The notes beneath the pieces were generated by a model. The model searched no databases. It was not told the origin of the DNA and saw only the letters and a program-made list of their open reading frames with translations. Both the position numbers and the translations under genes were made by a program. 64,000 nucleotides of DNA from an uncultured bacterium (GTDB lineage Bacteria > Auribacterota > Erginobacteria > Erginobacterales > CAZKCI01), in contig CAZKCI010000121.1 in the NCBI GenBank assembly GCA_964551475.1, positions 14,308 to 78,307 of the forward strand, given 5' to 3'. This document shows, in pieces, positions 2,914 to 63,384 of the stretch (position 1 is the first letter of the stretch; each line of letters begins with the position of its first letter).

Positions 2914-5151
2914 ATGAACAATATTGCTTGTCTGATTATGGGAGTGTTGGTTCTCGGAGGAGCCGTCTTCCCCGCCCCCCGCGCCTTCAGCCAGGAGATA
3001 TTCCAGGACCTCGACCTCGAGTACTCAACCTACCTGGGCGGGAGCGGGACCGACCAGTGCGGCGATTTCACCGGCAACGGCGGCGGGAAATGCATCGCGG
3101 TCGATTCTGCCCTCTGCGCGTATATCGTCGGATCGACCTCCTCGGCCGATTTCCCCACCGCGAATCCCTACCAGCCGGCCAAAGCCGTCGGGGCCGACGT
3201 TTTCGTCGCCAAGCTCCATCTGGACGGAGATTCCCTGATCTATGCCACCTATCTGGGCGGAGGAAACCCCGACACCGGCCAGGGGATCGCGGTCGACGCC
3301 GCTTTCAACGCCTACGTCGTCGGCTGGACCGGCTCGGCGGATTTCCCCACCGTCAACCCGTACCAGCCGTCCTTCGCCGGGGGTAATGAAGACGCTTTCG
3401 TGGCCAAGCTCGATTCGTCCGGCTCCTCCCTCCTCTTCTCCACCTACCTCGGCGGCCCCACCGGCTCTTCGCCTTATGAGCACGGCCAGGACATCGCCGT
3501 GGATGGATACGGGAACACCTACGTGGCCGGTTCCACCGGGTCGTATGAATTTCCCACGGTCAATCCCTATCAGGCCTCCTACGCCGGGAACGCCGACGCC
3601 TTCGTCTCCAAGCTCGACCCCTCCGGGTCGATTCTAGTCTATTCCACCTACCTCGGCGGAGCCGATTCCGACGAGAGCGCCCGGGGGATCGCAACGGACG
3701 CCGACGGGTCCGCCTTCGTGGTCGGGGACACCAGTTCCGCCGACTTCCCCACCCGCAACCCCATTCAGGCCGCCTGGGTGAACAACGACGACGCCTTCGT
3801 CACCCGTTTCTCCACGTCGGGGAGTTCGCTCCTCTTTTCCACCTATCTGGGCGGGAGCCACCACGACGGCGCCTCCCAAGTGGCGGTGGACGCCGATGGT
3901 TTTGCCTATGTGAGCGGCGACACTTTTTCCGATAACTTCCCCACGGCGAACGCCTACCAGGCGACCAAGGCCGGAGGCTGGGACGCTTTCCTTGCCAAGA
4001 TCGATCCGGTCAACGCCCTTCTGACCTACTCCACCTATTTCGGCGGCAGCGATAACGACAGCGGCAAAGGCCTGGCCGTCTATCTCGACCAGTTCCCCTT
4101 CCTCGCCGGCTACACCGAGTCGACCGACCTGCCGGTGCGGCACGCCTACCAGTCGACCTTCGCCAGCCAGACCGGGGGCGACGCCTTCCTGGCCAAGTTC
4201 TCCTGCCAGGCCCGACGCCTCATCTTCTCCACCTACCTGGGCGGGGCGGACGACGATTTCGGGGGCGGGGTGGCGGTCGACTTCCAGGGCTCGGCCTATC
4301 TCGCGGGATATACGAAGTCCACCGACTTCCCCCTCGAGGACCCCTACCAGTCGAGCGAAGCCGGGAACGAGGACGTCTTCGTGAGCAAGCTGATCCAGCC
4401 GGTCATCCGCCCGGTCTACGCCTCGGGGGACTATAACGGCGACGGGACGAGCGAAGCGGCCGTCTTCCGCGCCCAGGAAGGACGCTGGCTGGTCCGGAGT
4501 TTCACCCGATTCTACTTTGCCCAGATCCTCGACCTCCTCGCCCCGGGCGACTACAACGGCGACGGCACTTCCGACTTCGGTCTCTTCCGGCCGGCGGAAG
4601 GCCTCTGGGCGATCCGCGGCCTCACCCGGGTGAACTACGGCGGCGCCGACGACCAGTCGGTCCCCGCCGACTACGACGGCGACGGGACCTGCAACATCGC
4701 CCTCTTCCGCCCGTCGATGAGCCTCTGGGCGATCCGCGGGGCGCTGCGCGACTACCTCGGGCTCACGGGCGACCTCCCCGTCCCCGGCGACTACGACGGG
4801 GACGGAAGCGCCGGTGTGGCGATCTTCCGCCCCTCTACCGGGATGTGGTCCGTGAAATACATCACCATCGCCTACTTCGGCGCGGGTAATGACAAGGTCG
4901 TCCCCGGTGACTTCGACGGCAACATGACCTGGGACTGCGGCATCTTCCGCCCCGGCTCCGGCCTCTGGGCGATCCGCAACGTCACCCGTATCTACCTCGG
5001 CGACTGCGAGGACATGCCCATGCCCGCCGACTACGACGCCGTCCCCGGCGACGAGATGGGACTCTTCCGGGAAGGCAACGGTCTCTGGGCGATCTCCGGG
5101 CTCACCCGTTTCTCCTTCGGGGGGGCGGGAGACACGCCGGTGACGAGGTAG
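2914..5151 (+). CDS. Secreted protein with N-terminal SBBP beta-propeller repeats and C-terminal FG-GAP/VCBS-like Ca-binding repeats
   Basis: Signal peptide; about 9 repeats of YSTYLGG..D.G.GIAVD..GNAYV.G.T.S.DFPT.NPYQ...G..DAFVAKLD (SBBP pattern); C-terminal about 7 repeats of GDY(N/D)GDG....A.FRP..GLWAIRG.TR..FG; GGAGG RBS. Confidence 0.8.
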   Translation: MNNIACLIMGVLVLGGAVFPAPRAFSQEIFQDLDLEYSTYLGGSGTDQCGDFTGNGGGKCIAVDSALCAYIVGSTSSADFPTANPYQPAKAVGADVFVAKLHLDGDSLIYATYLGGGNPDTGQGIAVDAAFNAYVVGWTGSADFPTVNPYQPSFAGGNEDAFVAKLDSSGSSLLFSTYLGGPTGSSPYEHGQDIAVDGYGNTYVAGSTGSYEFPTVNPYQASYAGNADAFVSKLDPSGSILVYSTYLGGADSDESARGIATDADGSAFVVGDTSSADFPTRNPIQAAWVNNDDAFVTRFSTSGSSLLFSTYLGGSHHDGASQVAVDADGFAYVSGDTFSDNFPTANAYQATKAGGWDAFLAKIDPVNALLTYSTYFGGSDNDSGKGLAVYLDQFPFLAGYTESTDLPVRHAYQSTFASQTGGDAFLAKFSCQARRLIFSTYLGGADDDFGGGVAVDFQGSAYLAGYTKSTDFPLEDPYQSSEAGNEDVFVSKLIQPVIRPVYASGDYNGDGTSEAAVFRAQEGRWLVRSFTRFYFAQILDLLAPGDYNGDGTSDFGLFRPAEGLWAIRGLTRVNYGGADDQSVPADYDGDGTCNIALFRPSMSLWAIRGALRDYLGLTGDLPVPGDYDGDGSAGVAIFRPSTGMWSVKYITIAYFGAGNDKVVPGDFDGNMTWDCGIFRPGSGLWAIRNVTRIYLGDCEDMPMPADYDAVPGDEMGLFREGNGLWAISGLTRFSFGGAGDTPVTR

Positions 5152-6821: not shown

Positions 6822-6970
6822 GGTTATCAGGTTCAGCGGTTCAACGGTTCACGGTTCAACGGTTCGGCGGTTCAACGGTTCAGCGGTTCAGCGGTTCAAC
6901 GGTTCGGCGGTTCGGCGGTTCACGGTTATCGTCATCATTTTCAACCGTTGAACCGTGAACCCTTGAACCG
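6822..6970. repeat. Tandem array of about 12 GGTTCRRC octamers followed by an inverted copy (aaccgttgaaccgtgaacc), forming a long dyad; family A copy 1
   Basis: Direct reading of the sequence; the same architecture recurs at 57458-57600 and 63306-63384, and copies 1 and 3 both begin ggttatcaggttca. Confidence 0.9.
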
Positions 6971-8886: not shown

Positions 8887-11744
8887 GCCGAGACGGAAAA
8901 CGCCGCGCCGAGGCGCCCTCCCCCCGCCGGACCCGGTCGGCCGCGGGCCAACAAGCTCCCCCGCTCCAGTTGTCCGCGGCCGGGGGCGTCCTGAACAAAT
9001 TCCGCGCCATCTTCGGGGCCGCGCGCGACCCCATCCTGCTCTTCGCCCTCGGCGAAGATTTTCTCCCGACTGCCATCGTCAATGCCAACCCCGCGGCGGT
9101 CCGTCTCCTCGGCCGCTCGCGCCGGGATCTCCTCCGCCTGAATCCCCTGGAACTGATGGGGACGGAACGGCGGAAGCACGTGGAAGAGATTCGCGACATC
9201 CTGCGCCGGCAGGGGGCCTGCGTCTTCATCGATCGCCTCAGAGCGGCGGATGGAACCGCGCGCGAGGTGGAGGTCAGCCTGACCGTCGTCAAGATCGACG
9301 GGCGCACCTTCGCGCTCAACATCAGCCGCGACCTCACCGAACAGCGAAAAACCGAACAGGCGCTGCGGGAATCGGAGCAGACCTTCCTCGCCCTGGCCGA
9401 ACAGTCTCCGACCATGATCTTCATCAACCAGGGCGGGAAGATCGTCTACGCCAACCCTTCCTGCGAAAAACTGATGGGTTACTCCCGGGCCGAGTTCTAC
9501 GCCGACGGCTTCGATTTCCTGAGGCTGATCATGCCGGAACACCATCCCGCTATCCGGGAGAATTTCCAGATCCACCAGAACGGCCAGGAAGTGACGCCGA
9601 TCGAATACGCGCTCCGAACCAAAACCGGGCCCAGGCTGTCGGCGATCACCAGCACCCGCCTGATCTATTTTCGGGGCGGCCGGGCCATCCTGGGCGTGGT
9701 CACCGACATCACCGAGCGCAAACGGGCGGAGGCGGAACTCGAGAACTACCGCCTGAACCTGGAGCAGCTGGTGGAGGAGAGGACGGCGGAGCTCTCCTCC
9801 TCCGAGCAGAAGTTCCGAGCCCTGGTGGACAACATCGCCGTCGGCATTTCCCTGATCAGCCCGGAGATGAGGATAGTGACCCTCAACGCCCAGATGCGCC
9901 GCTGGTTCCCCGCCGCTGACCCCGCCGCCGCCCCTCTCTGCTATCGCAGTTTCAACAACCCTCCCCGGGACCAGGTCTGCTCCTACTGCCCGACCATTCA
10001 GACGCTGCGCGACGGACAGGTCCACGAGGCGGTCACCGAGACCCCGGCCGGGGGAGGCATCGTGAACTACCGGGTCATCTCCTCCCCGATCACCGACTCC
10101 CGGGGAAAGGTGATCGCGGCGATCGAGCTGGTGGACGACATCACCGCCCAGCGGCAAACCGAAGAGGAACTGGAGAAATACCGCCGGCGGCTGGAGGATC
10201 TGGTCCGGGAGCGGACCGAGCAGCTGCGCCGGAGCGAGGAGATCTTCCGGATCGCCGCCCAATCCACCAGCGACCTGATCTACGACTGGGACATCGGCAG
10301 CCAGCGGCTGGAATGGCTGGGCAACATCGACCGGGCGCTGGGGTACGAGTCCGGCGAGTTCCCCCGGACCATCTCGGCCTGGGAAAACGCCATCCATCCC
10401 GAAGACCGGGGGCGGGTGCTGGCCGCCCTCCGGGACCATCTGGAACGCCGCCGGGAGTGGGAGCAGGAATACCGGATCCGCACCAAGGGCGGATCATATC
10501 GCCACTGGCTGGACCACGGCAGCGCGATCCGGACGGCGGACGGAGCCGCCTCCCGGATGATCGGCTGCTGCGCCGATGTCACCGAGAAAAATCGGATGGA
10601 AGAGGAACTCCTGAAGGCCCAGAAACTCGAGTCGGTGGGACTGCTCGCCGGCGGGATCGCCCATGACTTCAACAACATCCTCACCGGCATACTCGGCCAC
10701 ATCTCGCTGGGTCGCCTGATCGCCCCTCCCGAATCAAAAATCGCCCGGACCTTGAGCGAAGCGGAGAAGTCCTGCCTCAGGGCGAAAGCCCTGACCCAGC
10801 AGCTGCTGACCTTCTCCCACGGCGGCGCGCCGGTGAAAAAGGCCGGGCACCTGGGGGCGCTGCTGCAGGAGACGGCGGAGTTTGTCCTGCACGGATCGCG
10901 CATCAAGGTCCGCCTGGCCGTTGCCGACGACCTCTGGCCGGTGGAGATGGACGAGGGCCAGATTTCGCAGGTGATCAACAACATCGTCCTCAATGCCGTC
11001 CAAGCCATGCCCGAGGCGGGCACCATCGCCATCCGGGCCGCCAACGTCTTTCTCGACGGGGAATCCGGCCTCCTCCTGAACCCGGGGCCTTATGTCGAGG
11101 TGGAAATCTCCGACCAGGGGGCGGGAATCCCTTCCGAGCATCTCCCGCGGGTCTTCGATCCCTATTTCACCACCAAGCAGAAGGGAAGCGGCCTGGGCCT
11201 GGCCATCGCCTACTCGATCGTCAAGCACCACGGCGGAGTGATCTCGGTCGCGTCGGAGGCGGGCCAGGGCTCCACCTTCATCATCCGTCTGCCCGCCGCG
11301 CCGGGCGCGGCGATCGCGCCGGCGCCGGAGGCGGAGCTGCCTCCGGTGAGGGGGACGGGGAAAATCCTGGTGGTGGACGACGAGGAAACCGTCCGGAGGG
11401 TGGCCACGGAAATCCTTTCCCATCTCGGCTATGAAGCCAAGGATGCCCGGGGATCGTCGGAGGCGATCGAACTCTACGCCCAGGCCCGCGCCGGGGGGGC
11501 GCCCTTTTCGGCGGTGATCATGGATCTGACCATCCCCGGCGACGTCGACGGGGTGGCGGTGGCCTCCAGGATCCTCGAACTCGACCCCGCAGCGAGGATC
11601 ATCGTCTCCAGCGGCTATGCCGTCTCCCCGATCATGTCCGACTACGCCGCCCACGGTTTCGTCGGGGCGATCGCCAAGCCCTACCAGATCCGGGAGCTGA
11701 GCGAGGTGCTGGGAAGGGTACTGAATCTGAAATCTGAGATCTGA
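8883..11744 (+). CDS. Multi-PAS hybrid sensor histidine kinase (about 4 PAS domains, HisKA, HATPase_c, C-terminal receiver domain)
   Basis: H-box IAHDFNNILTGILGH, ATPase N/G boxes, C-terminal REC (KILVVDDEETVRR...MDLTIPG), repeated PAS signatures; start overlaps the upstream stop (ATGA). Confidence 0.9.
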   Translation: MSRDGKRRAEAPSPRRTRSAAGQQAPPLQLSAAGGVLNKFRAIFGAARDPILLFALGEDFLPTAIVNANPAAVRLLGRSRRDLLRLNPLELMGTERRKHVEEIRDILRRQGACVFIDRLRAADGTAREVEVSLTVVKIDGRTFALNISRDLTEQRKTEQALRESEQTFLALAEQSPTMIFINQGGKIVYANPSCEKLMGYSRAEFYADGFDFLRLIMPEHHPAIRENFQIHQNGQEVTPIEYALRTKTGPRLSAITSTRLIYFRGGRAILGVVTDITERKRAEAELENYRLNLEQLVEERTAELSSSEQKFRALVDNIAVGISLISPEMRIVTLNAQMRRWFPAADPAAAPLCYRSFNNPPRDQVCSYCPTIQTLRDGQVHEAVTETPAGGGIVNYRVISSPITDSRGKVIAAIELVDDITAQRQTEEELEKYRRRLEDLVRERTEQLRRSEEIFRIAAQSTSDLIYDWDIGSQRLEWLGNIDRALGYESGEFPRTISAWENAIHPEDRGRVLAALRDHLERRREWEQEYRIRTKGGSYRHWLDHGSAIRTADGAASRMIGCCADVTEKNRMEEELLKAQKLESVGLLAGGIAHDFNNILTGILGHISLGRLIAPPESKIARTLSEAEKSCLRAKALTQQLLTFSHGGAPVKKAGHLGALLQETAEFVLHGSRIKVRLAVADDLWPVEMDEGQISQVINNIVLNAVQAMPEAGTIAIRAANVFLDGESGLLLNPGPYVEVEISDQGAGIPSEHLPRVFDPYFTTKQKGSGLGLAIAYSIVKHHGGVISVASEAGQGSTFIIRLPAAPGAAIAPAPEAELPPVRGTGKILVVDDEETVRRVATEILSHLGYEAKDARGSSEAIELYAQARAGGAPFSAVIMDLTIPGDVDGVAVASRILELDPAARIIVSSGYAVSPIMSDYAAHGFVGAIAKPYQIRELSEVLGRVLNLKSEI

Positions 11745-11757
11745 GATCTGAGATTTT
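11725..11757. repeat. Short GARATCT heptamer array (ctgaatctgaaatctgagatctgagatctgagattttt) forming the 3' end of the kinase gene and its T-run; family B
   Basis: The last 6 codons (NLKSEI) and the stop codon of the kinase lie inside the repeat. Confidence 0.8.
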
Positions 11758-13242: not shown

Positions 13243-13395
13243 GCGATCAGTAATCAGTGATCAGTGATTTCAACTTTCAGATTTGAGATCTCAGATTTGA
13301 GGTCTGAAATTTGAGATCTGAAATCTGAGATCTGAAATTTGAAATCTGAGATCTGAAATTTGAAATCTGAGATTTGAGATTTGAGATTCCGGATC
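13243..13395. repeat. Composite heptamer array: CAGTRAT units (13243-13275) then about 17 YTGARAT heptamers; families C and B
   Basis: Every unit falls on a strict 7-bp phase (ttcagat ttgagat ctcagat ttgaggt ctgaaat ...). Confidence 0.9.
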
Positions 13396-13398
13396 TCC

Positions 13399-14685
13399 TC
13401 ACCTGCTCAACGGTATATCTCCCGCCTGGCCGAAGTAGAAGGACGTGTCCTCCCTGACCTCCCAGAACCCCGTCTCGGGGTGAAAGCAGCCCATCCGCGC
13501 CGTTCCCCCCGTCCCCGTGTAATCGGCCGGAACGGGGATGTCTCCGGCGACGCCCGAAAACACCCGGGTGACGCCGCGAACCGTCCAGAGACCGCTCTCC
13601 GGCCGAAAGAGAGCGACGTCGGCCAAGCCGTTGCCGTCATAATCGGCGGGTATGGGAACATCGCCGGAACGGCCGAAGTTGAGTCGGGTGAGATTCCTCA
13701 CCGCCCAGAGGCCGGCGGAGGGGCGAAAGATCGCCGCTTCGGCTCTCCCGTCATGGTCGAAGTCCGCCGGAACGGGATAGTCGTCGGAGTTTCCAAAAAA
13801 GAAGCGGGTGAGGTTTCTCACCGCCCACCTTCCGTCCGCGGGGCGATAGACGGCGATGTCGCACGATCCGTCTCCCGACCAATCCCCCGGCACGGGAAGG
13901 TCGGAAGCACCCCCGAAATAGATTCGCGCGCCGGTTTTCACGGCCCAGAGGCCGGAAGAGATGCGGTAGACCGCGGCCTCGGCCTTGCCGTCGCCGGTGT
14001 AGTCGCCGGGCGCGGGGATATCGCCGGAAGAACCGAGATAAAAAGAGGTGACTCCCCGGACCGCCCAGAGACCGATGCCGGGACGAAAGAGAACCGCCTC
14101 GGCGGCCGGGTCGGCGTCGTAATCGGAGCTCTCCCCCCGCGGCGGCGGAAAGACCCGATAGCTTCCCCCCCAGACCGCGGAGAGGAGATCGGTCCCCAGG
14201 CCGTCGTCCCTGATCGCGTTGGAATCCCCTCCCGCTCCGGGGGCGAGGAAATAATACGTGAGCGCTATCGGGGAAAAGCATCGGACGGGCGTGGCCAGGA
14301 TATCGGCTACGGCCACCGCGCTGCCGTTGAGGGCGGTCTGATGGGGAGTCCCGACCACCACCTGAACTCTCCCGTCCCCGAAAGTCGAGCGGGCCAGAAA
14401 ACGAAATTGTCCCGGTCCGGGAGGATCGGCGACGTTCGGGGTCACGGAGTCGATGCGGAGAGACGCCGGGTCGTAGATCAGAATCGGGTCGGCGACGACC
14501 ACGGACTCCCCCTGTGTGTCCATCGCCATCCGGAACGGGGAAGGGACGCCGTAATACATGCTTCCCGCGCCGGGATCAAGGCTCAAGGTGGCGGCGATAG
14601 CGCCGGCGGGGAGGGAGAGCGACAGGAAAGCGGCGATGACCCGACGGAAGAGAATCCTCGTCGTCAATCCGGGGCGGATGCGCAT
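13399..14685 (-). CDS. Secreted FG-GAP/VCBS-repeat protein, paralogous to the C-terminal half of the 2914-5151 product
   Basis: Signal peptide starting MRIRPGLTTRILFRRVIAAFLSLSLPAGAIA (ATG 14685); about 6 repeats PxPGDYxGDGxxExAVxRPxxGLWAVRxxTRxxFG. Confidence 0.75.
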   Translation of the reverse strand: MRIRPGLTTRILFRRVIAAFLSLSLPAGAIAATLSLDPGAGSMYYGVPSPFRMAMDTQGESVVVADPILIYDPASLRIDSVTPNVADPPGPGQFRFLARSTFGDGRVQVVVGTPHQTALNGSAVAVADILATPVRCFSPIALTYYFLAPGAGGDSNAIRDDGLGTDLLSAVWGGSYRVFPPPRGESSDYDADPAAEAVLFRPGIGLWAVRGVTSFYLGSSGDIPAPGDYTGDGKAEAAVYRISSGLWAVKTGARIYFGGASDLPVPGDWSGDGSCDIAVYRPADGRWAVRNLTRFFFGNSDDYPVPADFDHDGRAEAAIFRPSAGLWAVRNLTRLNFGRSGDVPIPADYDGNGLADVALFRPESGLWTVRGVTRVFSGVAGDIPVPADYTGTGGTARMGCFHPETGFWEVREDTSFYFGQAGDIPLSR

Positions 14686-14785
14686 ACTAATAGTTAGCAC
14701 GCGAGAAGGGGGAAAGCAAATCAAGGAAGGGGTGTTTCTCCCATTCACCATTCACCATTCCCTATTCCCCATTCACTATCTGTTC

Positions 14786-24094: not shown

Positions 24095-24175
24095 CCATTG
24101 TAGGCCGGTTCTGTGAACCGGCGACCAGCCTCGCCGCCCGCTCACAGAGCGGGCCTACAGCCCGCACGACCGAGC
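24095..24175. repeat. GTAG-type REP pair (CTGTAGGCC plus hairpin, then an inverted copy) inside the hydrogenase operon; family E
   Basis: tgtaggccggttctgtgaaccggc ... gcccgctcacagagcgggcctacag; same family at 36538-36600 and 45514-45630. Confidence 0.85.
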
Positions 24176-25215: not shown

Positions 25216-25335
25216 TTGTGGGAGCGACATTCTTGTCGCGATCCCGGCCAACATGGATCGGGGCAAGATGCCCCTCCCACAGTGACAATTTTTTCGCGCT
25301 TGTAAGTTCTAGTGTGGGAGCGGCGTCTGCCCCAT
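25216..25335. repeat. TGTGGGAGCG...CCTCCCACA palindromic element (one full plus one partial copy) inside the hydrogenase operon; family D
   Basis: Outer inverted termini tgtgggag/ctcccaca enclose GC-rich hairpins; recurs at 27216-27430, 48673-48782 and 53095-53300. Confidence 0.85.
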
Positions 25336-27215: not shown

Positions 27216-27430
27216 GTTATATTGTGGGAGCGACATTCCTGCCTGCCCCGATAGTCCCGGCAGAAGTGCGGGACTATCGGGGCCGCGATCCGAGTCAACC
27301 TGGATCGGGGCAAGAATGCCCCTCCCACAATCACACTATCGATCGTGTCTATGTCATTTCTGTGGGAGCGGCGTCTCGCCGCGATCCCTGCCAGCCCGGA
27401 TCGGGCCGAGGACGGCCCTCCCACAAAATC
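27216..27430. repeat. Two family-D palindromic elements between the NuoL-like gene and the hydrogenase large-subunit gene
   Basis: tattgtgggagcgacattcctgcctgccccgatagtcccggcagaagtgcgggactatcgggg...cccctcccaca, plus a second copy at 27355-27425. Confidence 0.85.
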
Positions 27431-31036: not shown

Positions 31037-31065
31037 GAGAGAGTCAGAGGCGTCCGAGATCCGGT

Positions 31066-31140
31066 GTAATGTGTAAGGTGTAATGTGTAATGAAAAACTG
31101 ACTGGCCATTATTACACCTTACACTTTCCACCTTACACCC
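31066..31140. repeat. GTGTAAK heptamer array with inverted partner (dyad) between the ferredoxin and HydG-like genes; family H variant
   Basis: gtgtaat gtgtaag gtgtaat gtgtaat g ... ttacaccttacactttccaccttacacc. Confidence 0.8.
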
Positions 31141-36537: not shown

Positions 36538-36600
36538 GATGTAGGCCCGCTCTGTGAGCGGGCGTTTCGCCGCCGCCTCACAGAGGCGGCCTACACATAG
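36538..36600. repeat. GTAG-type REP pair (family E)
   Basis: tgtaggcccgctctgtgagcgggcg ... cgccgcctcacagaggcggcctaca. Confidence 0.85.
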
Positions 36601-36612
36601 GTTTTATCGATC

Positions 36613-37563
36613 ATGGGGGCGAGAAGACAGCATTCTTATCCGGACCTCCTGCGCGTCGTCTATCGGACCTTCGACTCCCGTCAGATCGCGATCACGGGAC
36701 TGGGGCTTTTCTTCGCCCTCCTCTCCGCCTACGCTTTCTCCACCCTGGCTTATTTCGCTCAGGGCTCCCTCACCTTCCTCCCCTGGTTCCTGAACCTCCT
36801 GGGGGCGATCTCCTTTTATCTCGTCCTGATCGTCTTCTCCGGCCCCGTCACCTACCTCGCCCTCCAGGAAAACACGGGGGGCGGCGGCGGATTGGGCTCC
36901 GCCCTCCGGCTGGGCATCCGCTACGGCCCCCGCCTCCTGCGCGCCCCCTTGAGCGTCCTCTCCTCCCTCCTCCTCTGCCTGATCCTGCTCGCGGTCCTGA
37001 TCTCGCTCGGCCTGCTTCCCCGGGCCGGGACCGTGATCTGGTCGCTCCTGATCGTCCCCCAGTTCCTCATCTCCCTCTTCATCGTGATCGGCGTCCTCAC
37101 GCTGCTGGCGGGAACGCTCCTCCTCCCCTCCATCATCATCGACCGGGAGATCCCCGCCCGGCGGGCTTTTCAGGAGCTCACCGCCCTGATCAAAGGCCGC
37201 TTCTTCACCTTCTGGGGATACATCTTCACCATCCTTTTCCTCACCGCAGCCTACTTCGCGGTTGCCACCATCGTTCTGATCGGCGCTCTCTCGGTTTTCT
37301 TCGCCCTCTCCGCCTCCATCTTGGGAGACATGCCGGGAAAGGTGATCATGAACATCCCCCCCTTCTTCCACAAGGTGGCGCCCATCCTGGAGACCGCCCT
37401 GCCCATGCCCTCGTCTCTCCCCCCCGCCTCTCCCCTCCTCTCCTTGAGCGGGGCGATCGCGGGTTTCTCCCTCCTCATCATCTACGTCATCTGGCTCTCC
37501 TATCCCGTCCTCTACGCCATAAACTCCGGCGTGGTGGCCTACCTGGCTTTGACCCGGGATTGA
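36613..37563 (+). CDS. Hypothetical integral membrane protein (about 7 TM helices)
   Basis: Hydrophobic ORF with GGGGG-containing loop; no family assignment. Confidence 0.5.
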   Translation: MGARRQHSYPDLLRVVYRTFDSRQIAITGLGLFFALLSAYAFSTLAYFAQGSLTFLPWFLNLLGAISFYLVLIVFSGPVTYLALQENTGGGGGLGSALRLGIRYGPRLLRAPLSVLSSLLLCLILLAVLISLGLLPRAGTVIWSLLIVPQFLISLFIVIGVLTLLAGTLLLPSIIIDREIPARRAFQELTALIKGRFFTFWGYIFTILFLTAAYFAVATIVLIGALSVFFALSASILGDMPGKVIMNIPPFFHKVAPILETALPMPSSLPPASPLLSLSGAIAGFSLLIIYVIWLSYPVLYAINSGVVAYLALTRD

Positions 37564-38275
37564 CACAACCCCTTCGGGGTTGATGGCGGCATCGGCTCCC
37601 CCAACCCGGGGTAGCGCCTCCGGCGCAACCCCGGGCTATGCGATGGAATCCCGTTGGGATTCGGCCTCCGGCGACAATGCCAAAAGATCTGGATTGGGAA
37701 TCGATGCCGGAAAACGCTGTTCGACGACGGCTGGTCCCAACAAAATCATCTTCGATCACCCAGACGTCTTGCCCCTGTGAACGCCACTTTGAAAGTTATC
37801 TTCTTCACCCGGTTTGAAATCTCCCTTTCGGGCCGGCGGTCACATGCCCCAACGGGGCAACGTCCCCTAGCCCAGGGTTGCGCCGGAGGCGCTACCCTGG
37901 GTAAACGACACGCATCGCCAGGCCAACCCCAACGGGGTTGTGTCCCCTAGCCCAGGGTTGCGCCGGAGGCGCTACCCTGGGTAAACGGCGCGCAACGACA
38001 GGCCAACCCCAACGGGGTTGCATCCCCTAGCCCAGGGTTGCGCCGGAGGCGCTACCCTGGGTAAACGACACGCAGCGCCAGGCCAACCCCGACGGGGTTG
38101 CGTCCCCTAGCCCAGGGTTGCGCCGGAGGCGCTACCCTGGGTAAACGGCGCGCAACGACAGGCCAACCCCAACGGGGTTGTGTCCCCTAGCCCAGGGTTG
38201 CGCCGGAGGCGCTACCCTGGGTAAACGACACGCAACGACAACCAACCCCAACGGGGTTGCATCAAAGGAGAACGG
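37560..38275. repeat. REP array upstream of the RAYT: one inverted-orientation unit (37560-37690), a diverged spacer, then five tandem 80-bp structured units
   Basis: Unit cccctagcccagggttgcgccggaggcgctaccctgggtaaacgacacgcaacgacaggccaaccccaacggggttgcgt; contains nested hairpins and a GTAG (as CTAC) tetranucleotide. Confidence 0.9.
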
Positions 38276-38277
38276 CT

Positions 38278-38733
38278 ATGCCACAATCGTTGTCATGCGT
38301 CTACGTCCACCTGGTATTTTCGACGAAAAATCGGGTCCCTTTCATTCGGGAGATGGCGCTACGCGCGGAATTGCAGGCCTATCTGGGCGGGATTTCCAAG
38401 ACATTGGAATGCCCGCCAACCATTGTCGGCGGAACGGATGATCACGTACACATGTTGTGTCGTTTGGGGCGGACGATCGCGCAGGCGAATTGGGTCAAGG
38501 AGGTCAAGCGCGTGTCCAGCGCCTGGATCAAGCAACACGATCCGACGCTGGCGGATTTTGCCTGGCAGACCGGATATGGCGCGTTTTCGGTAAGCGTGTC
38601 AAATCTGGAAAAGGTCCAGGCATATATCTCCAACCAGGAAGAACATCATCGTCAACAATCCTTTCAGGACGAATACCGTGCGTTTCTGAAAAAACACGGC
38701 TTGGAATGCGATGAACGGTATATGTGGGATTGA
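38278..38733 (+). CDS. REP-associated tyrosine transposase (RAYT; IS200/IS605-like Y1 HUH transposase TnpA-REP)
   Basis: HUH motif DDHVHMLCRL, catalytic Tyr in AWQTGYGAFSVS, about 150 aa, flanked on both sides by REP arrays; AAAGGAGA RBS 6 nt before ATG 38278. Confidence 0.85.
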   Translation: MPQSLSCVYVHLVFSTKNRVPFIREMALRAELQAYLGGISKTLECPPTIVGGTDDHVHMLCRLGRTIAQANWVKEVKRVSSAWIKQHDPTLADFAWQTGYGAFSVSVSNLEKVQAYISNQEEHHRQQSFQDEYRAFLKKHGLECDERYMWD

Positions 38734-38739
38734 TAGGTG

Positions 38740-39430
38740 TTGACACAACCCCTTCGGGGTTGACGGGGATATTGCTCTCGTATACCCGGGGTAGCGCCTT
38801 CGGCGCAACCCCGGGCTACATGACAGAATCCCTTTGGGATTCGTCCCCCGCAATTGCCCAAAAGGGGCAATGTCCCCTGGCCAAGCATTGCGCCAAAATC
38901 GTCCGATGGAATCCTATTGGGTATTCGGCTCCTGCAACAACGCTGGGATGCCGAGTACGGAAACCTCACCTGCAACACCATCCCAAACAATATTGTGAGG
39001 CATTCGTTAACCCCAACGGGGTTGCGTCTCCTAGCCCAGGGTTGCGCCGAAGGCGCTACCCTGGGTAAACGACACGCAACGACAGGCCAACCCCAACAGG
39101 GTTGCGTCTCCTAGCCCAGGGTTGCGCCGGAGGCGCTACCCTGGGTAAACGGCGCGCAACGACAGGCCAACCCCAACGGGGTTGCGTCTCCTAGCCCAGG
39201 GTTGCGCCGAAGGCGCTACCCTGGGTTAACGACACGCAACGACAGGCCAACCCCAACGGGGTTGCGTCCCCTAGCCCAGGGTTGCGCCGAAGGCGCTACC
39301 CTGGGTAAACGGCGCGCAACGACAGGCCAACCCCAACGGGGTTGCGTCCCCTAGCCCAGGGTTGCGCCGAAGGCGCTACCCTGGGTTAACGACACGCAAC
39401 GACAGGCCAACCCCAACGGGGTTGCGTCCC
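38740..39430. repeat. REP array downstream of the RAYT: inverted-orientation unit (38740-38870), a diverged spacer, then five tandem 80-bp units
   Basis: Same unit as the upstream array; 38740-38870 and 37560-37690 share ttgacacaaccccttcggggttga...cccggggtagcgcc. Confidence 0.9.
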
Positions 39431-39431
39431 T

Positions 39432-40529
39432 CTATCCCGTGATCGGGGCGGGGACAAAGGAGAGGAGGAGGATCAGAAAGACCAGCCAGCCGAGGAGCCT
39501 CCGGCGGGGATCGAGGGGGGTGACGTCGTCGAGCGGCGGGGGATGGCGGATCCCCATGAGCAGGATCACCAACACCCAGACCAGCCAGCCCTCCCAGAAG
39601 ACGATCCCGAGGAGAACGAGGATCGCGATGAAAATCCGGGCGATCAGGGGATGTTTTGCGCCGAAGAGGGCGTAGGCGATATGGCCCCCGTCGAGCTGGC
39701 CGATGGGGAAGAGGTTGATCGCGGTGACCATGAGTCCCACCCAGCCGGCGAAGGAGACCGCGCCGATCATGATGTCCTGGCCGGGGGCGAGGTGGGGGAA
39801 GCGCAGGCCGAAGATGAACTTGGTGAGGAGCGAATCGCCGAAGTAGATCGCCGCCGGTCCCGGAGGGATTTCGGCGAGCTTGAGCTCGGAAAGGCCGACG
39901 AAGAGTGCGGCGGCGGAGAGGACGAAGGAGGCGATCGGCCCGGCGATCCCCACGTCGAAGAGGCTCTTCCGGTTCGGGAAAGGGGAGCGGCTGACGATCA
40001 GGGCGCCCATCGTCCCGAAGAGGTTCGGGAAGGGGATGAAATAGGGAAGGGACGACTTCACGCCGTGGCGCAGCGAGACGAGGTAGTGGGAGAACTCGTG
40101 GCAGAGAAGTATGGAGAGGAGAGTGAGGGAGAAGGGCCAGCCCCGCAGAAGCAGGAGGGGGCGGGCCATCAGCTCCTGGGCGCCGATCTCCTGGAAGGCG
40201 ACGCCGACGAAGAGCGTGCTGACGACCGTGGCGAGAAACAGGAGGAGATGGACGAGGGGACGGCCGGGTTTCCGTTCCGTCCGCGCGGGGGCGAACTTGA
40301 GCGCCGTCCCCCGTTTGTCCCGCGCCAGGAAGACCAGCAGGCCGAAGGGCGCTGTCTTCTCGCGGATGATCCGGAAGGCCTGATCGGAGGGGAGCCTGAG
40401 CGCGCCCCGAAAGACGAGAAAGGGGCCCTCGTAACCCCGGTCGGATATCTCCATCACCCCGGCGACGAGGTCGGGAAGTTCCCACTGGATATCGTACGAG
40501 GGAGAGTTTATTGCGTCTTGCTCGCTCAT
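39432..40529 (-). CDS. Site-2 protease family (M50) membrane metalloprotease
   Basis: HEFSHY (HExxH) in a TM helix, downstream LDGGH motif. Confidence 0.85.
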   Translation of the reverse strand: MSEQDAINSPSYDIQWELPDLVAGVMEISDRGYEGPFLVFRGALRLPSDQAFRIIREKTAPFGLLVFLARDKRGTALKFAPARTERKPGRPLVHLLLFLATVVSTLFVGVAFQEIGAQELMARPLLLLRGWPFSLTLLSILLCHEFSHYLVSLRHGVKSSLPYFIPFPNLFGTMGALIVSRSPFPNRKSLFDVGIAGPIASFVLSAAALFVGLSELKLAEIPPGPAAIYFGDSLLTKFIFGLRFPHLAPGQDIMIGAVSFAGWVGLMVTAINLFPIGQLDGGHIAYALFGAKHPLIARIFIAILVLLGIVFWEGWLVWVLVILLMGIRHPPPLDDVTPLDPRRRLLGWLVFLILLLSFVPAPITG

Positions 40530-43630: not shown

Positions 43631-44353
43631 ATGAACGCGAACACCTACGCTGCTATCGGCGAATCCTTCCCTCCCCTCTCCTCACGGGAACCGGATGCCG
43701 CTTTCGTTGCCCGCTGGGAGAGGGAGAACGAGCGCCTGCGGGAGATCGTCCTGTCGGTCAAGGCCGCCGATGAAAAGGTCAAGGATGAGGTTTTGCGGGC
43801 GGGCCTGATGGACCCCCGAAATGCCGTCATCCGGGAGGAGATCAAGTCCTTCTGCGCCATCCCCTACCGGCGTCGGGAGGGACCGCTCGCCCCCTGCGAG
43901 GGAATCACCTACGGTTGGAAAGGCTGTCCACCCCATTCCCCTCCGGTCGCTGAAACCATCTCGCTCCTGCGCTCCGCCTCCGCCTTCCTCATCCTTCAAT
44001 TCAGCGGCCTCAAGCATCACTCCTTCCAGAAGCACATCCACGAGTTCACGCTCTCGCTGGAAGCGGTTCTCCGGGGAAAGGGATGGAAGGTTCTTCAGAG
44101 CTACAGCACCGGCCCCTGCCGTCTCTGCGCCAAGGGGTGCGCCGAAAGCGGGGACTGCCGTCAGCCTCAGAGGAGACGCTTCGCCCTGGAGTCCTGCGGT
44201 TTCTGGGTGAAGAGCCTCTGCCGGGCGGCCGCCCGCTTTCCCCTCTGCGGAGACGGGGAGTGGGAGATTGAGTGGATCCGGGACTGGAACCTGCCCTCCC
44301 AGTCCCCCCCTACCTACCGGGCGGTGACGGGGATACTGCTGGTACATGGGTGA
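43631..44353 (+). CDS. Cys-rich predicted metal-binding protein (DUF2284-like)
   Basis: Several Cys pairs (CEGITYGWKGC, CRLCAKGCAESGDC, CGFWVKSLC). Confidence 0.6.
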   Translation: MNANTYAAIGESFPPLSSREPDAAFVARWERENERLREIVLSVKAADEKVKDEVLRAGLMDPRNAVIREEIKSFCAIPYRRREGPLAPCEGITYGWKGCPPHSPPVAETISLLRSASAFLILQFSGLKHHSFQKHIHEFTLSLEAVLRGKGWKVLQSYSTGPCRLCAKGCAESGDCRQPQRRRFALESCGFWVKSLCRAAARFPLCGDGEWEIEWIRDWNLPSQSPPTYRAVTGILLVHG

Positions 44354-44651
44354 AGGTTAGGAAGTGGGTCTGGGGGATAGGTCAGGGTCAGGTTAGGCCA
44401 GACGGGCTACACTATTAACCTTACCCATTTACCAGACCATCATCCTTACCCTGACCCATCGACCCCGATGGCAAATGGGTAAGGGTCAGGAAGTGGGCCT
44501 GGGGGATGGGTCAGGGTCAGGTGGGGCCAGACGGGCTACACTATTAACCTTACCCATTTACCAGACCATCATCCTTACCCTGACCCATCGACCCCGATGG
44601 TACATGGGTAAGGGTCAGGAAGTGGGTCTGGGGGATGGGTCAGGTCGATGG
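44341..44651. repeat. About 129-bp structured tandem repeat, 2.4 copies, spanning the DUF2284 stop codon to the nfo stop codon
   Basis: Copies start at 44341, 44469 and 44599; each unit holds internal inverted segments (aaatgggtaagggtcagg... versus ...ccttaccctgacccat). Confidence 0.9.
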
Positions 44652-48664: not shown

Positions 48665-48672
48665 TCGTTCGA

Positions 48673-48782
48673 TGGTGGGAGCGACATTCTTGCCTGCCCC
48701 GATAGTCCCGGCAGAAGTGCGGGACTATCGGGGTCGCGATCCGAGTCAACCTGGATCGGGGCGAGACGCCCCTCCCACATAT
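48673..48782. repeat. Family-D palindromic element (tattgtgggagcgacattcttgcctgccccgatagtcccgg...cccctcccacatatgg)
   Basis: Near-identical to the 27216-27330 copy. Confidence 0.85.
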
Positions 48783-52837: not shown

Positions 52838-53094
52838 GCTCCCTGTGATTGGTGTCTGATCAAGGTGGTATATTAACAGCGAACGCCCTTCTGTCAAGCC
52901 GGATTATGGCCGATTATGGCCGAGAATCCTAAGCTTCCCGTCGTAATCCGGCGTTTGTTCCGTTGCGGGCGCCTCCTGCTTCCGGAATCTATCGCACCAG
53001 GGCAGCCTGCTCCTGATTCGCGGGTATGTTCATTCCCGCGAATTAGTCACTTTCCCGACCACATACACGCTTCTGCGTGTATGTTGTTATGTCC

Positions 53095-53300
53095 TATTGT
53101 GGGAGCGGCGTCTCGCCGCGATCCGAGCCAACAGGATCGGGCCGGGGACGGCCCTCCCACATTGACAACTTTTATGCGCGTGTAAGATCCTATTGTGGGA
53201 GCGGCGTCTCGCCGCGATCCGGGCCAACAGGATCGGGGCCCCGATCTTGATATGCATCTAATCGTAATCGGGGCAGGCAGGAATGCCCCTCCCACAATAA
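53095..53300. repeat. Three family-D palindromic element copies upstream of the rplU operon and downstream of rng
   Basis: tattgtgggagcggcgtctcgccgcgatcc...ccctcccaca, three times. Confidence 0.85.
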
Positions 53301-55655: not shown

Positions 55656-57466
55656 GCGACCGTCTCCCCGGCTTTCCGCGCTTCCTCGATCAGCGTCGCT
55701 TTATCGACTCCCCCGCCGATATGGTCCCAGGGAAGCGTGTCCTCTCGACCATAGGGCGGACGAAGATAGAACTCGGGCGCGAGACCGGCTTTGGAAAAAG
55801 CCCGCTCCCACCGTTCGCTGGACAGATGCTCCTCCCACTCGTCAAACCGGCATCCCTCTTCGTGGGCGGCCAGGAGGATCCCTCCGACCCGGCGGTCCCC
55901 CCGGGAGATCACGCCCTCGATCAAACTCGTCTCCAGCGAACGGAACTTGAGCCTCACCCGCCGGGAGCGCACGCCGGAGCGGAGCACGGCCTGGGCCGAC
56001 CGGATCTCCTCCCGAGCGGCCATGGGCGCCCACTGGAACGGAGTGGCCGGCTTGGGGACGAAGGTGGAGATCGTGACGTTGGTCTCCCCTCCCCAGCGGG
56101 AGAGGCGGTTGATCATTTCGACGATGGCCTCCACGTCCTCCCTGGTCTCCCCCGGAAGGCCGACCATGAAATAGAGCTTCATCAGACGCCAGCCCATGGC
56201 CTTGAGCTTCTGGCTCAGATCCCAGAGGCGCTGCGGGTCGCAGGATTTTCCGATCGCCCGCTGGAGGCGGGGGCTGGCGGCCTCGGGGGCGAGCGTGATC
56301 CCGCTCTTGCTCACCCGCTTGCTCTCCAGAAGCATCGCCTCCGTGACCGAGGCGATGTTGAGCGAAGGCAGGGAGAGTCCGATCCGCCGTCGGGCCAGAA
56401 CGGGGGAAAGCTCCTCCATCACCGCGGCGATCTCGGGGTGGTCGCCGCTGGAGAGCGAGAGGAGCGAGACCTCTCCCCGGCCGCTCCTCTCGGCGAGCGC
56501 CAGCGCCTGGCGGACCGTCTCCTCCTTCGACTTGCGCCGCACCGGGCGGGAGGTCCAGCCGGCGGCGCAGAAACGGCAGCCGCGGGCGCAGCCGCGCATG
56601 ATCTCGACCGCGGAACGGTCGTGTGTGACCTCGGTCAGGGGGACCAGCGGGGCCGCTATTTGAGATCGGTTCAGGTCGGCAAAAACGCGCTTCTCGATCC
56701 GGGAGGGGATGCCGTCCCCGATCGGACTGATCCCCGTGAACTTCCCGGCCGAATCGTAGGCGGGCCGGTAGAGCGCAGGCGCATACAGCCCCGGAACCCG
56801 GTTCACCATGCGCCGGAGAAGCTCCAGCTTCCCCTCCTCTCTTCTCTCCTGTCGGAGCGAAGCGGAGATCCCGATCGGCGCCACTGGCGATGATCGGGAC
56901 CCTTCCTGCCTTTCTTTTTGATATGCCTCCATTATCTCGACGATGGCTTCCTCGCCGTCCCCGATGAGAAAGAGATCGAAGAAATCCGCCAGCGGCTCGG
57001 GGTTATAGGCGCCGATCCCTCCCCCCAGAACGAGCGGATAACCAGGATGGGCGCGGCGGGAGGCCAGGAGGGGAAGGCCGGCCAGCGAAAGCATGGCCAG
57101 GATATTGGTGTAGGTGAGCTCGGACTGGAGGGAAAATCCCCAGAGATCGAACTCCCGGGCCGGGCGGCGGGATTCCAGCGAGAAGAGGGGGATACCCTTC
57201 GCCTTCATCCTCTCCTCCATGTCGGGCCAGACCGCGAAAGCCCGTTCCGCCGCGAACCGTCCGTCCCGGTTCACGATGTCATAGAGGATCTGCAGGCCGA
57301 GATGGCTCATCCCCAGCTCGTAGACATCCGGATAGCTGAAGAGAATCCGCGCCTCCGCCCGGGGGCGGACGGACGCATTGATCTCCCCCCCGATATAGCG
57401 GGCGGGCTTCTGGACGAAGGGGAGGACCTCCTCTTCCAGAACGCGGATTATGTTCAGAGGGTTCAA
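55652..57466 (-). CDS. TIGR03960-family B12-binding-domain radical SAM protein; TTG start embedded in the family-A repeat
   Basis: Radical SAM CxxxCxxC (CARGCRFCAAG), N-terminal B12-binding-like region; no in-frame ATG near the N-terminus, TTG at 57466. Confidence 0.8.
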   Translation of the reverse strand: MNPLNIIRVLEEEVLPFVQKPARYIGGEINASVRPRAEARILFSYPDVYELGMSHLGLQILYDIVNRDGRFAAERAFAVWPDMEERMKAKGIPLFSLESRRPAREFDLWGFSLQSELTYTNILAMLSLAGLPLLASRRAHPGYPLVLGGGIGAYNPEPLADFFDLFLIGDGEEAIVEIMEAYQKERQEGSRSSPVAPIGISASLRQERREEGKLELLRRMVNRVPGLYAPALYRPAYDSAGKFTGISPIGDGIPSRIEKRVFADLNRSQIAAPLVPLTEVTHDRSAVEIMRGCARGCRFCAAGWTSRPVRRKSKEETVRQALALAERSGRGEVSLLSLSSGDHPEIAAVMEELSPVLARRRIGLSLPSLNIASVTEAMLLESKRVSKSGITLAPEAASPRLQRAIGKSCDPQRLWDLSQKLKAMGWRLMKLYFMVGLPGETREDVEAIVEMINRLSRWGGETNVTISTFVPKPATPFQWAPMAAREEIRSAQAVLRSGVRSRRVRLKFRSLETSLIEGVISRGDRRVGGILLAAHEEGCRFDEWEEHLSSERWERAFSKAGLAPEFYLRPPYGREDTLPWDHIGGGVDKATLIEEARKAGETVA

Positions 57467-57600
57467 CGGTTCAGCGGTTCAACGGTTCAGCGGTTCAACG
57501 GTTCAGCGGTTCAACGGTTCAGCGGTTCAACGGTTCAGCGGTTCAGCGGTTCAGCGGTTCAACGGTTTAAAGGCAACCGTGAACCTTGAACCGTGAACCC
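57458..57600. repeat. Family-A GGTTCRRC octamer array (about 13 units) plus inverted arm
   Basis: ggttcaacggttcagcgg... then aaccgtgaaccttgaaccgtgaacc. Confidence 0.9.
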
Positions 57601-60484: not shown

Positions 60485-60625
60485 GAGAGATAATCTCAGA
60501 TTTCAGATCTCAGATATCGGATCGCGAATCTCGGATTCGGGATTTCGGATCGTGGATCCCGGTTTGAAATCTCAAATCCCAGCTATCAAATCTCAAATCT
60601 GAAATCTGAGATCTCAAATCCTCCG
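60481..60625. repeat. About 20-unit heptamer array whose first half (tYtcRga) is the reverse complement of its second half (ctSaaat), forming a giant dyad between mrdA and mreD; family B
   Basis: tctcaga tttcaga tctcaga ... ttgaaat ctcaaat ... ctgaaat ctgagat ctcaaat, every unit on a 7-bp phase. Confidence 0.9.
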
Positions 60626-63305: not shown

Positions 63306-63384
63306 GGTTATCAGGTTCACGGTTCAGAGGTTCACGGTTCAGGGGTTCACGGTTTTCCCCCCCCAACCGTTGAACCCTTGAACC
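63306..63384. repeat. Family-A GGTTCA-core array plus inverted arm (copy 3)
   Basis: ggttatcaggttcacggttcagaggttcacggttcaggggttcacgg ... aaccgttgaacccttgaacc. Confidence 0.85.

Follow-up and report, generated by a model that had tools for sequence, protein, structure and literature searches.

Introduction

Does a lone transposase gene set between two arrays of a structured repeat belong to an insertion sequence (IS), or is it a resident gene with a repeat of its own? The question is raised by a locus in a stretch of 64,000 nt (hereafter the window) from an uncultured bacterium of the Auribacterota (GenBank assembly GCA_964551475.1, contig CAZKCI010000121.1), where a gene of the HUH/Y1 transposase family (38278-38733, plus strand) lies between two blocks of repeats with an 80-bp period. 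A preliminary description of the locus took the protein for a RAYT, the REP-associated tyrosine transposase (TnpA-REP) that accompanies repetitive extragenic palindromic (REP) sequences, took the 80-bp period for the repeated element, and proposed the enzyme as a candidate for spreading one or more of the other REP families in the window. Our analysis points to a system that differs on all three counts. The locus is probably REPtron-like, consisting of an apparently single-copy Y1 gene of subclass 1.2 bracketed by its cognate repeat, and this repeat is a module of three hairpins.

Three motifs (DH[IV]H, WQ and Y---Q--HH) define subclass 1.2, together with a C-terminal domain specific to it; the median length is 148 aa (Quentin et al. 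2018, PMC6006769). It was described there as close to IS200, low in copy number, not IS-like, found mostly in Cyanobacteria and Bacteroidetes, and without associated repeats ('REP: no'). Bertels et al. (2017) reported an 'IS200 Group 3' that is RAYT-like, occurs without duplicates and not on plasmids, and has abundant flanking 16-mers; going by the two descriptions, Group 3 would be the same as subclass 1.2. In the literature searched, no mention of subclass 1.2 was found beyond Quentin et al. (2018), and the hairpin sequences of the locus were not found either.

Results

The repeat is a module of three hairpins

The repeated element at the locus, here called unit U, comprises three hairpins (A, B and C) and spans about 100-110 nt. 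Hairpin A has a stem of 5-7 bp and a 3-nt loop, and is free in sequence with its pairing kept. After a gap of about 10 nt, which ends in AG, follows hairpin B, built of a conserved 8-bp outer stem (CCCAGGGT/ACCCTGGG), a fixed unpaired T-T and an inner stem-loop of variable sequence. Some 22 nt of linker separate it from hairpin C, the sequence of which is nearly fixed (CAACCCCAACGGGGTTG, then YGKC). The inner stem of B occurs with swapped pairs, GCGCC/GGCGC being replaced by GCCGC/GCGGC, GCGCG/CGCGC, GCGGG/CCCGC or longer stems. On the complementary strand hairpin B reads CCCAGG-GTAG-CGCC..GGCG-CAAC-CCTGGG, and GTAG there covers the outer stem, the mismatch (A-A on this strand) and the inner stem. 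The GTAG reported earlier on one strand is thus found inside hairpin B, opposite the strand on which the array units are read. Neighbouring units of an array have a hairpin in common, C of the first doubling as A of the second, and five B hairpins accompany six A/C hairpins. The 80-bp period is not the element: it is the spacing of neighbours that share a hairpin. The observation that the unit is longer than a classical REP and is arrayed holds.

The unit flanks homologous genes in several phyla

In the window, the last unit of array 1 and the inverted unit 3' of the gene form a unit(+)-gene-unit(-) core, and the same arrangement was found at 11 other loci with homologues of the Y1 gene (L039, L040/L041, L042, L043, L047, L008, L019, L018 with two genes, L052 and Persicobacter L057). 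At these 11 loci a unit in the orientation of the gene ends 8-20 nt 5' of the ATG, and at 10 of them an inverted unit lies 3' of the stop codon. Hairpin B stands 53-75 nt from the ATG on one side and, where recognisable, 41-56 nt from the stop codon on the other. The loci come from Planctomycetota, Verrucomicrobiota, Gammaproteobacteria, Bacteroidota and unclassified metagenome contigs; their proteins are 46% to 74% identical to that of the window, and the neighbour genes differ at every locus (secretin/IMPDH, hsdM/hsdS, an esterase and others). Because the linkage is conserved at the 11 other homologue loci, we regard unit U as the cognate repeat of the gene. The near-invariant 31-nt hairpin (CCCAGGGTTGCGCCGGAGGCGCTACCCTGGG) has been kept together with proteins 65-77% identical, from Planctomycetota to Gammaproteobacteria. 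With up to 3 mismatches it occurs 12 times in the window, always inside 37605-39385; 100 shuffles gave an expectation of 0.

Structured repeats flank the gene in the window and at all 11 other loci, including one in Bacteroidota, contrary to the published description of subclass 1.2. We treat this as a departure from the description, not as grounds for excluding the protein from the subclass. A homologue from Bernardetia (39% identical) is flanked by other inverted repeats (AGCTGCGTAGCTGCG); the architecture therefore extends further than the unit sequence.

Some loci have peculiarities of their own. At L040 (9415-12151) and L041 (JGI 3300059090 contig Ga0573892_10; Logan SRR23588367_576) a 71% identical homologue lies between hsdM and hsdS of a type I restriction-modification operon. 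At L040 about 13 units are clustered over about 2.7 kb. Some of them form tandem runs, with periods of 156 and 210 nt, and one section of the cluster has been annotated as an open reading frame (ORF) of 482 aa without a Pfam match, most likely spurious. On a contig of a Verrucomicrobiota metagenome-assembled genome (MAG; L018/L030, CAZGGF010000113.1) two Y1 paralogues, each with its own units, are separated by about 2.6 kb; their identity to the protein of the window is 57% and 56%.

Base pairing of the unit is under selection

Covariation showed that the base-paired structure of the unit is under selection. We aligned 61 units, gathered at 40 loci by means of a pattern in which the outer stem of B was held constant; 95.5% of cells were paired, and compensatory changes were found in 14 of 27 pairs. 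The covariation score was 0.241, as against 0.081 after shuffling (0 of 500 reached it), and slid controls were 35-54% paired. RNAalifold independently returned the same three hairpins. Units found only by our covariance model R1 include compensated variants of the outer stem, CCCAGAGT/ACTCTGGG and CCCAGCGT/ACGCTGGG, and a simplified Bacteroidota form, CGATGGGT-loop-ACCCATCG.

Structure of this kind might be kept mainly for a host or regulatory role, as terminators or mRNA-stabilising hairpins of the two convergent neighbour genes or as a 5' leader of the transposase, with the Y1 gene a passenger or domesticated with another substrate. The folds are very stable (z-scores of -4.2 to -6.8), hairpin C always stands 8-20 nt before the start codon, and the arrays reach the stop codons of both convergent neighbours; secondary roles of this type are known for classical REPs (PMC3733652). 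We nevertheless consider this explanation improbable. No Rfam family reached its gathering score in the window, where the weak matches (RsmW, SorX, miRNA precursors) were at chance level, and promoter and terminator scans gave nothing above shuffle expectation and no terminator-like T tract. Five copies on each side are more than any terminator would need, and a local role leaves the cross-phylum tie to one protein family unexplained. A promoter reading of TTGCGC-N18-TAAACG inside the unit was dropped, as 3 of 6 positions matched in each hexamer.

The protein is IS200-like and not a RAYT

The Y1 gene encodes 151 aa, one more than first given, and its product matches Pfam Y1_Tnp (PF01797) at E = 3.4e-22 (79.3 bits vs a cut-off of 23, profile positions 4-121 of 121), in agreement with the original HUH/Y1 assignment. 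The HUH motif D55-H56-V57-H58 (38440-38451), W96-Q97 and Y116 (38623-38625, in AYISNQEEHH) are invariant in 29 homologues. Both motifs singled out in the preliminary description, DDHVHML and GYGAFSVS, are present, but the catalytic tyrosine had been sought in the second, which is a conserved motif and does not contain it. The predicted catalytic residue is Y116, which aligns with the catalytic Y127 of IS608 TnpA (VKQYIENQ vs VQAYISNQ). A C-terminal extension, FQDEY...DERYxW, is also conserved. The start is placed at 38278 because the homologues are all 151 aa long and begin MPQSLS. The window is part of a 94.8-kb contig at JGI (Ga0393266_0000038, metagenome 3300036982), where the gene call begins at an internal Met, gives 126 aa and drops the first 25 residues (38278-38352 in the window; L038 10001), which are conserved in homologues.

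Profiles and a structure model assign the protein to the IS200-like class 1 and place it outside the RAYT (TnpA-REP, class 2) clade, so that the earlier RAYT identification does not stand. The NCBIfam model IS200 (NF033573) was passed at a borderline 55.9 bits vs a cut-off of 55, and REP_Tyr_transpos (NF047646) stayed below threshold with 13.6 bits vs 80. A PDB search with the profile of the 29 homologues found ISDra2 and IS608 TnpA first (E about 1e-6) and did not find the E. coli RAYT 4ER8 at E up to 10. With the AlphaFold2 model of the 151-aa protein (pLDDT 82.2, pTM 0.71), the top 29 PDB matches by Foldseek were IS200/IS605 TnpA chains (E = 1e-6 to 4e-5, TM about 0.6-0.7), and 4ER8 ranked 30th (E = 3e-3, 12% identity). 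The argument against the RAYT clade is that NF047646 is far below its cut-off, that 4ER8 is far behind IS608 and ISDra2, and that the tyrosine motif is Y---Q--HH and not Y---NP. The motif set of subclass 1.2 is matched (DHVH, AWQ, YISNQEEHH, 151 aa, conserved C-terminal tail), an assignment made by motif only, against the motif table of PMC6006769.

The family comprises 292 clusters at 50% identity with E <= 1e-30, and more than 100 clusters at 90% identity are 64-77% identical to the window protein. Among the 150 top-scoring family representatives, about 20 (P0241, P0244, P0249, P0252 and others) are 270-315 aa long and have two query matches each; these are possibly two fused Y1 domains, a single-chain version of the TnpA dimer.

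The IS200 match and the fold nearest to IS608 and ISDra2 TnpA would suit an autonomous IS200/IS605-type insertion sequence, with the flanking units as its left and right ends and the whole element moving. Near-identical end hairpins in unrelated phyla also suggest that gene and ends travel together, and the gene-carrying element of Persicobacter has the termini of mobile-looking dimers. Against this, the flanking hairpins are inverted and not on the same strand as in IS200/IS605, in keeping with the original view that ordinary IS200 ends are missing and that the architecture is that of a REPtron (RAYT/REP). The window contains one copy of the Y1 gene, the identical protein occurs in one genomic context only, and no tnpB partner is present. 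The family was absent from 50,697 phage records and was found on 2 of 72,556 plasmids, both of them megaplasmids of >600 kb. Low copy number and a lack of duplicates have been reported for the group (Quentin et al., PMC6006769; Bertels et al.), and a relative of the host (L052) has the same locus with a sister protein. An insertion sequence is thus a very unlikely explanation.

Layout of the locus

The gene sits between two near-duplicate blocks. The first opens with an inverted unit, U(-)1 (37556-37667, minus strand; R1 99.1 bits, E = 1.5e-21, also found by pattern match and as inverted-repeat pairs), the hairpins of which are A' GAATCCC-AAC-GGGATTC, B' CCCGGGGTTGCGCCGGAGGCGCTACCCCGGG at 37605-37635 and C' CAACCCCGAAGGGGTTG; its end overlaps the stop codon of an upstream gene for 316 aa (36613-37563). 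After spacer 1 (37668-37838, 171 nt) comes array 1 (37839-38269, plus strand), five head-to-tail units with an 80-bp period that were identified by Tandem Repeats Finder (37847-38260, period 80, 5.2 copies, 91% matches, score 709), by exact patterns and by R1 (101.8-107.5 bits). The B hairpins of this array start at 37871, 37951, 38031, 38111 and 38191, with six A/C hairpins, and its linkers are of two variants in alternation (a-b-a-b-a). A ribosome-binding site, AAGGAG (38265-38270, plus strand, read from the sequence), lies 5 nt 3' of the last C hairpin and 7 nt 5' of the ATG of the Y1 gene.

Directly 3' of the Y1 stop codon begins the second inverted unit, U(-)2 (38736-38847, minus strand; R1 104.3 bits; B' at 38785-38815). 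Spacer 2 (38848-39002, 155 nt) holds decayed unit remnants, recognised by repeat-family search and by reading the sequence. Examples are TTGCCCAAAAGGGGCAA, after which comes a hairpin B in degraded form, and a second version of the A' hairpin region (38904-38943). Array 2 (39003-39434, plus strand; Tandem Repeats Finder, patterns, R1 and block alignment) again has five head-to-tail units with an 80-bp period (39009-39428, period 80, 5.2 copies, 95% matches, score 770), with B hairpins starting at 39035, 39115, 39195, 39275 and 39355. Its end is 8 nt from the stop codon of a convergent M50 peptidase gene (39432-40529, minus strand; Pfam Peptidase_M50).

Two five-copy arrays of 80-bp period, each preceded by an inverted copy, had been described here, and both are where they were placed. 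The duplication of the blocks is real for the arrays, which are 94% identical, in register and a-b-a-b-a alike, and for the inverted units, which are 83% identical; the spacers of about 170 nt, described earlier as diverged, are unalignable with each other in a global block alignment. A CRISPR array was considered and rejected, the 22-24-nt linkers being two alternating near-identical variants and not unique spacers.

The locus is inherited and its arrays are homogenised

The host belongs to a deep lineage: the best named matches of its leucyl-tRNA synthetase (LeuRS) are about 57% identical and come from phyla of the PVC (Planctomycetes-Verrucomicrobia-Chlamydiae) group and from Thermodesulfobacteriota. 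The relative L052 (GCA_016294955.1; LeuRS 87% identical) has the same order of M50 peptidase, array, Y1 gene, array and 316-aa gene, with an inverted unit before each array as in the window. The L052 arrays repeat every 83 bp and contain 4 and about 2.5 units, in which the loop is 4 nt long and the linker is unrelated. The Y1 protein of L052 is 74% identical to that of the window, the two being sisters in a neighbour-joining tree. Linkers are unalignable between the window and L052, and inside each genome the two arrays are near-identical. Because the same locus is present in L052 and the arrays were homogenised separately, the comparison shows, at the level of sequence, vertical inheritance of the locus since before the split of window and L052 and concerted evolution of its arrays, which were turned over and homogenised on both sides of the gene. 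Outer-stem variants are distributed alike in both genomes, the U(-) copies having G-C (CCCGGGG/CCCCGGG) and the array units A-T; two unit subtypes are maintained, like the y and z REPs of E. coli.

In a more distant relative (LeuRS 70%) the Y1 gene is missing from the site. A sequence with identical LeuRS (L053) was discarded as a gene-lacking strain, its repeat region being a run of N, a scaffold gap (14100-14517, ENA ERZ28615405 scaffold_29).

For the origin of the arrays, and for that step only, a rival explanation has a chance just short of even. The arrays would be ordinary minisatellites, in which identical A/C hairpins (a 17-21-nt direct repeat, 80 nt apart) promoted slippage or unequal crossing-over, followed by gene conversion across the gene, the Y1 protein being uninvolved. 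The a-b-a-b-a order in both arrays, at 94% identity and in register, points to dimer-wise unequal exchange and block copying. Homologous loci have other periods (83 nt in L052, 79 nt in L035 and L051, 156 and 210 nt in L040), and tandem pairs are rare among dispersed copies (3 of 34). The enzyme, on the other hand, has a precedent in E. coli, where TnpA-REP catalyses REP-linker strand exchange and amplification of bacterial interspersed mosaic elements beside the gene has been proposed (Ton-Hoang et al., PMC3333891), and large clusters lie directly beside the gene in several genomes (the window, L052, L040, L043 and L019). Slippage and transposition models predict the same 80-nt period, and the array boundaries do not discriminate between them. 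Recombination is the likelier route for at least the later steps of array formation, in view of the alternating higher-order repeat and of the block copy.

Gene-less dimers are dispersed in other genomes

Exact copies of the 31-nt hairpin turned up at 37 loci. These belong to about 20 MAGs from at least 5 phyla, some of the MAGs having it on up to 7 contigs; by our own arithmetic about 2e-6 matches are expected by chance in 596 Gb. The MAGs are labelled Planctomycetota/Phycisphaerae, Verrucomicrobiota, Acidobacteria, Methylococcaceae and Odyssella, and every occurrence is in the same A-B-C frame. A host-biased 35-nt pattern scanned against metagenome contigs returned L050 and L051 only, and not the contig of the window. 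The scan with R1 gave 104 units in 46 loci, 60 of them in gene-less loci. Of the pairs of adjacent units, 26 were convergent, meeting at their tails with the C hairpins side by side or in common; 5 were divergent and 3 tandem. Dimers are 215-300 bp long, and their arms are mostly of different subtypes (GCGCC vs GCCGC inner stem). In the Phycisphaerae MAG JAGVHG a repeated element of about 300 bp has terminal inverted GTGTTTAGCG.

Five gene-less dimers lie within 8 kb of the Persicobacter gene, with about 40 nt in the gene's place, and none in a further 90 kb or so. Since both of their termini are common to the gene-carrying element, we interpret the dimers as derivatives of a unit-gene-unit element, similar to REPINs (REP doublets forming hairpins) or to miniature inverted-repeat transposable elements (MITEs). 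No conserved flank and no consistent target duplication were seen among dispersed dimers. A single dimer (L017, about 1180-1290 and 1560-1600) has the same ~35-nt flank on both sides (ccacccgtgagtggtttgtcgacctggtcagcaac), which is unexpected for a Y1 transposase. Arrays and dimers were also seen to break assemblies (contig ends of L004, L013, L028, L032 and L033), and units of the JAZDHF MAG lie at contig ends.

Other repeats in the window

A classical GTAG REPIN is present in four copies (36541-36600, 24100, 45516 and 45606), each made of two inverted GTAG hairpins, GTAGGCCCGCTCTGTGAGCGGGC-gtttc-GCCGCCTCACAGAGGCGGCCTAC. The repeats of this family (GTAGGCCCGC) are unrelated in sequence to the unit of the Y1 gene. 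A second dispersed family of about 100 nt has 5-6 copies (25235-25281, 27216-27424, 48667-48779, 53085-53237), some in tandem 96 nt apart, with terminal inverted TGTGGGAG / CTCCCACA and internal hairpins GCCGCGATCCGAG..GGATCGGGGC.

The proposal that the Y1 enzyme spreads other repeat families of the window, such as the classical REPIN at 24100, 36541, 45516 and 45606, has in its favour the GTAG at the foot of those hairpins, which recurs inside hairpin B, and the lack of a further Y1 gene in the window. It found no support, and we regard it as extremely unlikely: the stems are unrelated in sequence, none of these families flanks the gene here or at any homologue locus, and unit U, which does, has been conserved along with the protein in several phyla. 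As the window covers no more than 64 kb of the genome, a class-2 RAYT elsewhere is a simpler source, which the classical REPIN would fit.

Short-period arrays occur at 6830-6927, 57460-57567, 63314-63354; 11721-11754, 13275-13388, 60567-60620; 14741-14779; and 31064-31092. They consist of octamers, (GGTTCARC)n, at three sites and of heptamers (TYTGARA/ATCTGAG, CCATTCA, GTGTAAT) at several, and presumably resemble the short tandem heptamer repeats of cyanobacteria. A 129-bp tandem repeat at 44346-44644 has 2.3 copies and 94% matches. Coding-region repeats at 3094-5100, with periods of about 195 and 120 nt and Asp/Gly-rich motifs, look like protein repeats.

Discussion

We consider it probable that the gene and unit U form a REPtron-like pair. 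Several observations weigh against this reading. The R1 scan found no unit outside the locus, either in the rest of the 64-kb window or in 22.6 kb of L052, so that dispersal in the host itself is not supported by the window, and we estimate the density of units at below about 1 per 20 kb. The large contig collections scanned exclude the host genome, and the copy counts given above are those of other genomes. The duplicated layout of inverted unit, spacer and array on both sides of the gene is not accounted for by this reading. The invariance of the B outer stem is partly a matter of ascertainment, given that the pattern fixed this stem. The a-b-a-b-a repeat and the other periods (156 and 210 nt in L040) fit recombination better than transposition of one unit at a time, and the binding site, active strand and cleavage sites proposed for subclass 1.2 are all predictions by analogy.

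We infer the steps of a possible mechanism from the biochemistry of IS608 and ISDra2 TnpA and of E. coli TnpA-REP. The protein would bind hairpin B in single-stranded DNA, reading the outer stem and the mismatch and using the inner stem as a mere scaffold; the mismatch would tell the strands apart. IS608 TnpA likewise reads an imperfect hairpin. In E. coli, binding and cleavage by TnpA-REP depend on a mismatch in the stem and on GTAG (Ton-Hoang 2012, PMC3333891). Cleavage and rejoining might take place nearby, through Y116 and a metal bound by the HUH motif, and dimers of U may be mobilised in trans, probably at replication forks as for IS608. The arrays would represent local amplification of the 80-nt segment between equivalent points after hairpins A and C. 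The identity of these two hairpins would have allowed recombination or replication slippage between them; alternatively, the enzyme would have catalysed strand exchange. An array so formed would have been duplicated en bloc across the gene.

The locus would work like a REPtron, and by protein membership belongs to subclass 1.2 of the IS200 clade, not to the RAYTs. Like other members of the subclass (PMC6006769), the protein has DH[IV]H, WQ and Y---Q--HH (YISNQEEHH here vs YIKNQKEHH), about 150 aa and a conserved C-terminal tail, and the gene is apparently low in copy and not IS-like, and its family is nearly absent from plasmids, in line with the flanking 16-mers without gene duplication noted by Bertels. 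It differs in that a three-hairpin repeat, conserved and covarying, brackets the gene in every case, and in that the clade has members in Planctomycetota, Verrucomicrobiota, Gammaproteobacteria, Bacteroidota and an unplaced lineage. With the E. coli REPtron (TnpA-REP, 4ER8; Nunvar 2010; Ton-Hoang 2012, PMC3333891; Messing 2012) the locus has in common an apparently single-copy Y1 gene at a fixed site, cognate repeats in both orientations and variable number, two repeat subtypes paired in inverted orientation, a stem mismatch with GTAG, and local amplification beside the gene. TnpA-REP, however, is a class 2 protein (Y---NP), with only the fold in common, and the E. coli REP is a single hairpin of 30-40 nt whose GTAG stands outside the stem; it is specific to the species and reaches hundreds of copies. 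The E. coli arrays alternate in orientation, whereas those of the window run head to tail.

The dispersed dimers resemble the REPINs of Pseudomonas fluorescens SBW25 (Bertels and Rainey 2011, PMC3116915) in being non-autonomous inverted pairs, sometimes clustered, that are related to the flanks of a single-copy Y1 gene. The arms of SBW25 REPINs are REPs of about 25 nt, while ours are three-hairpin modules of about 100 nt, and of different subtypes. From MITEs, with which they share the nature of gene-less derivatives having both termini of a gene-carrying parent (Persicobacter), the dimers differ in that MITEs derive from DDE transposons with target-site duplications, where we presume a Y1 enzyme and saw no consistent target duplication. 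The IS200/IS605 elements IS608 and ISDra2 have the closest proteins by profile and fold, with HUH and a single Tyr on a C-terminal helix, and recognise imperfect hairpins with an unpaired base in single-stranded DNA, a property that is only predicted for the present locus. Their ends are direct and short, on a multi-copy element that often has tnpB, whereas here the flanks are inverted, long and composite around a syntenic, apparently single gene without tnpB. The classical GTAG-tagged REP is a single stem-loop of 20-40 nt with an unpaired GTAG at the 5' foot (Di Nocera 2013). Unit U has three hairpins over about 100 nt with GTAG across the B stem, and is set apart from those families by description, not by consensus. 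What is new is the association of subclass 1.2 with a repeat, the composite three-hairpin element, its near-identity across phyla, and head-to-tail arrays with shared hairpins.

A broader proposal, which we put forward as unlikely though worth stating, is that subclass 1.2 proteins and the three-hairpin unit are one ancient protein-DNA pair across phyla. The enzyme would be a domesticated single-stranded DNA recombinase that spreads gene-less dimers and also builds and homogenises the head-to-tail arrays beside its own gene, by excision and re-insertion of 80-nt circles. The pair would then be a system of REP/RAYT type with an independent origin among IS200-like enzymes, or else the missing link from IS200 to RAYTs suspected by Bertels et al.

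The domestication of bacterial transposases is classically illustrated by REP/RAYT systems, and experiments on them cover class-2 enzymes of Proteobacteria only. Here another Y1 subclass appears to display the full REPtron syndrome, with a single syntenic gene, flanking inverted cognate repeats, gene-less dimers dispersed in genomes other than the host's, and local arrays. The system is unusual in its three-hairpin composite and in a core hairpin that is near-identical across phyla, where classical REPs are lineage-specific. On the practical side, such arrays break metagenome assemblies and yield spurious ORF annotations, and the conserved, well-defined hairpin makes binding and cleavage assays straightforward. 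If confirmed, the system would provide an independent or intermediate case for the domestication of IS200-type transposases.

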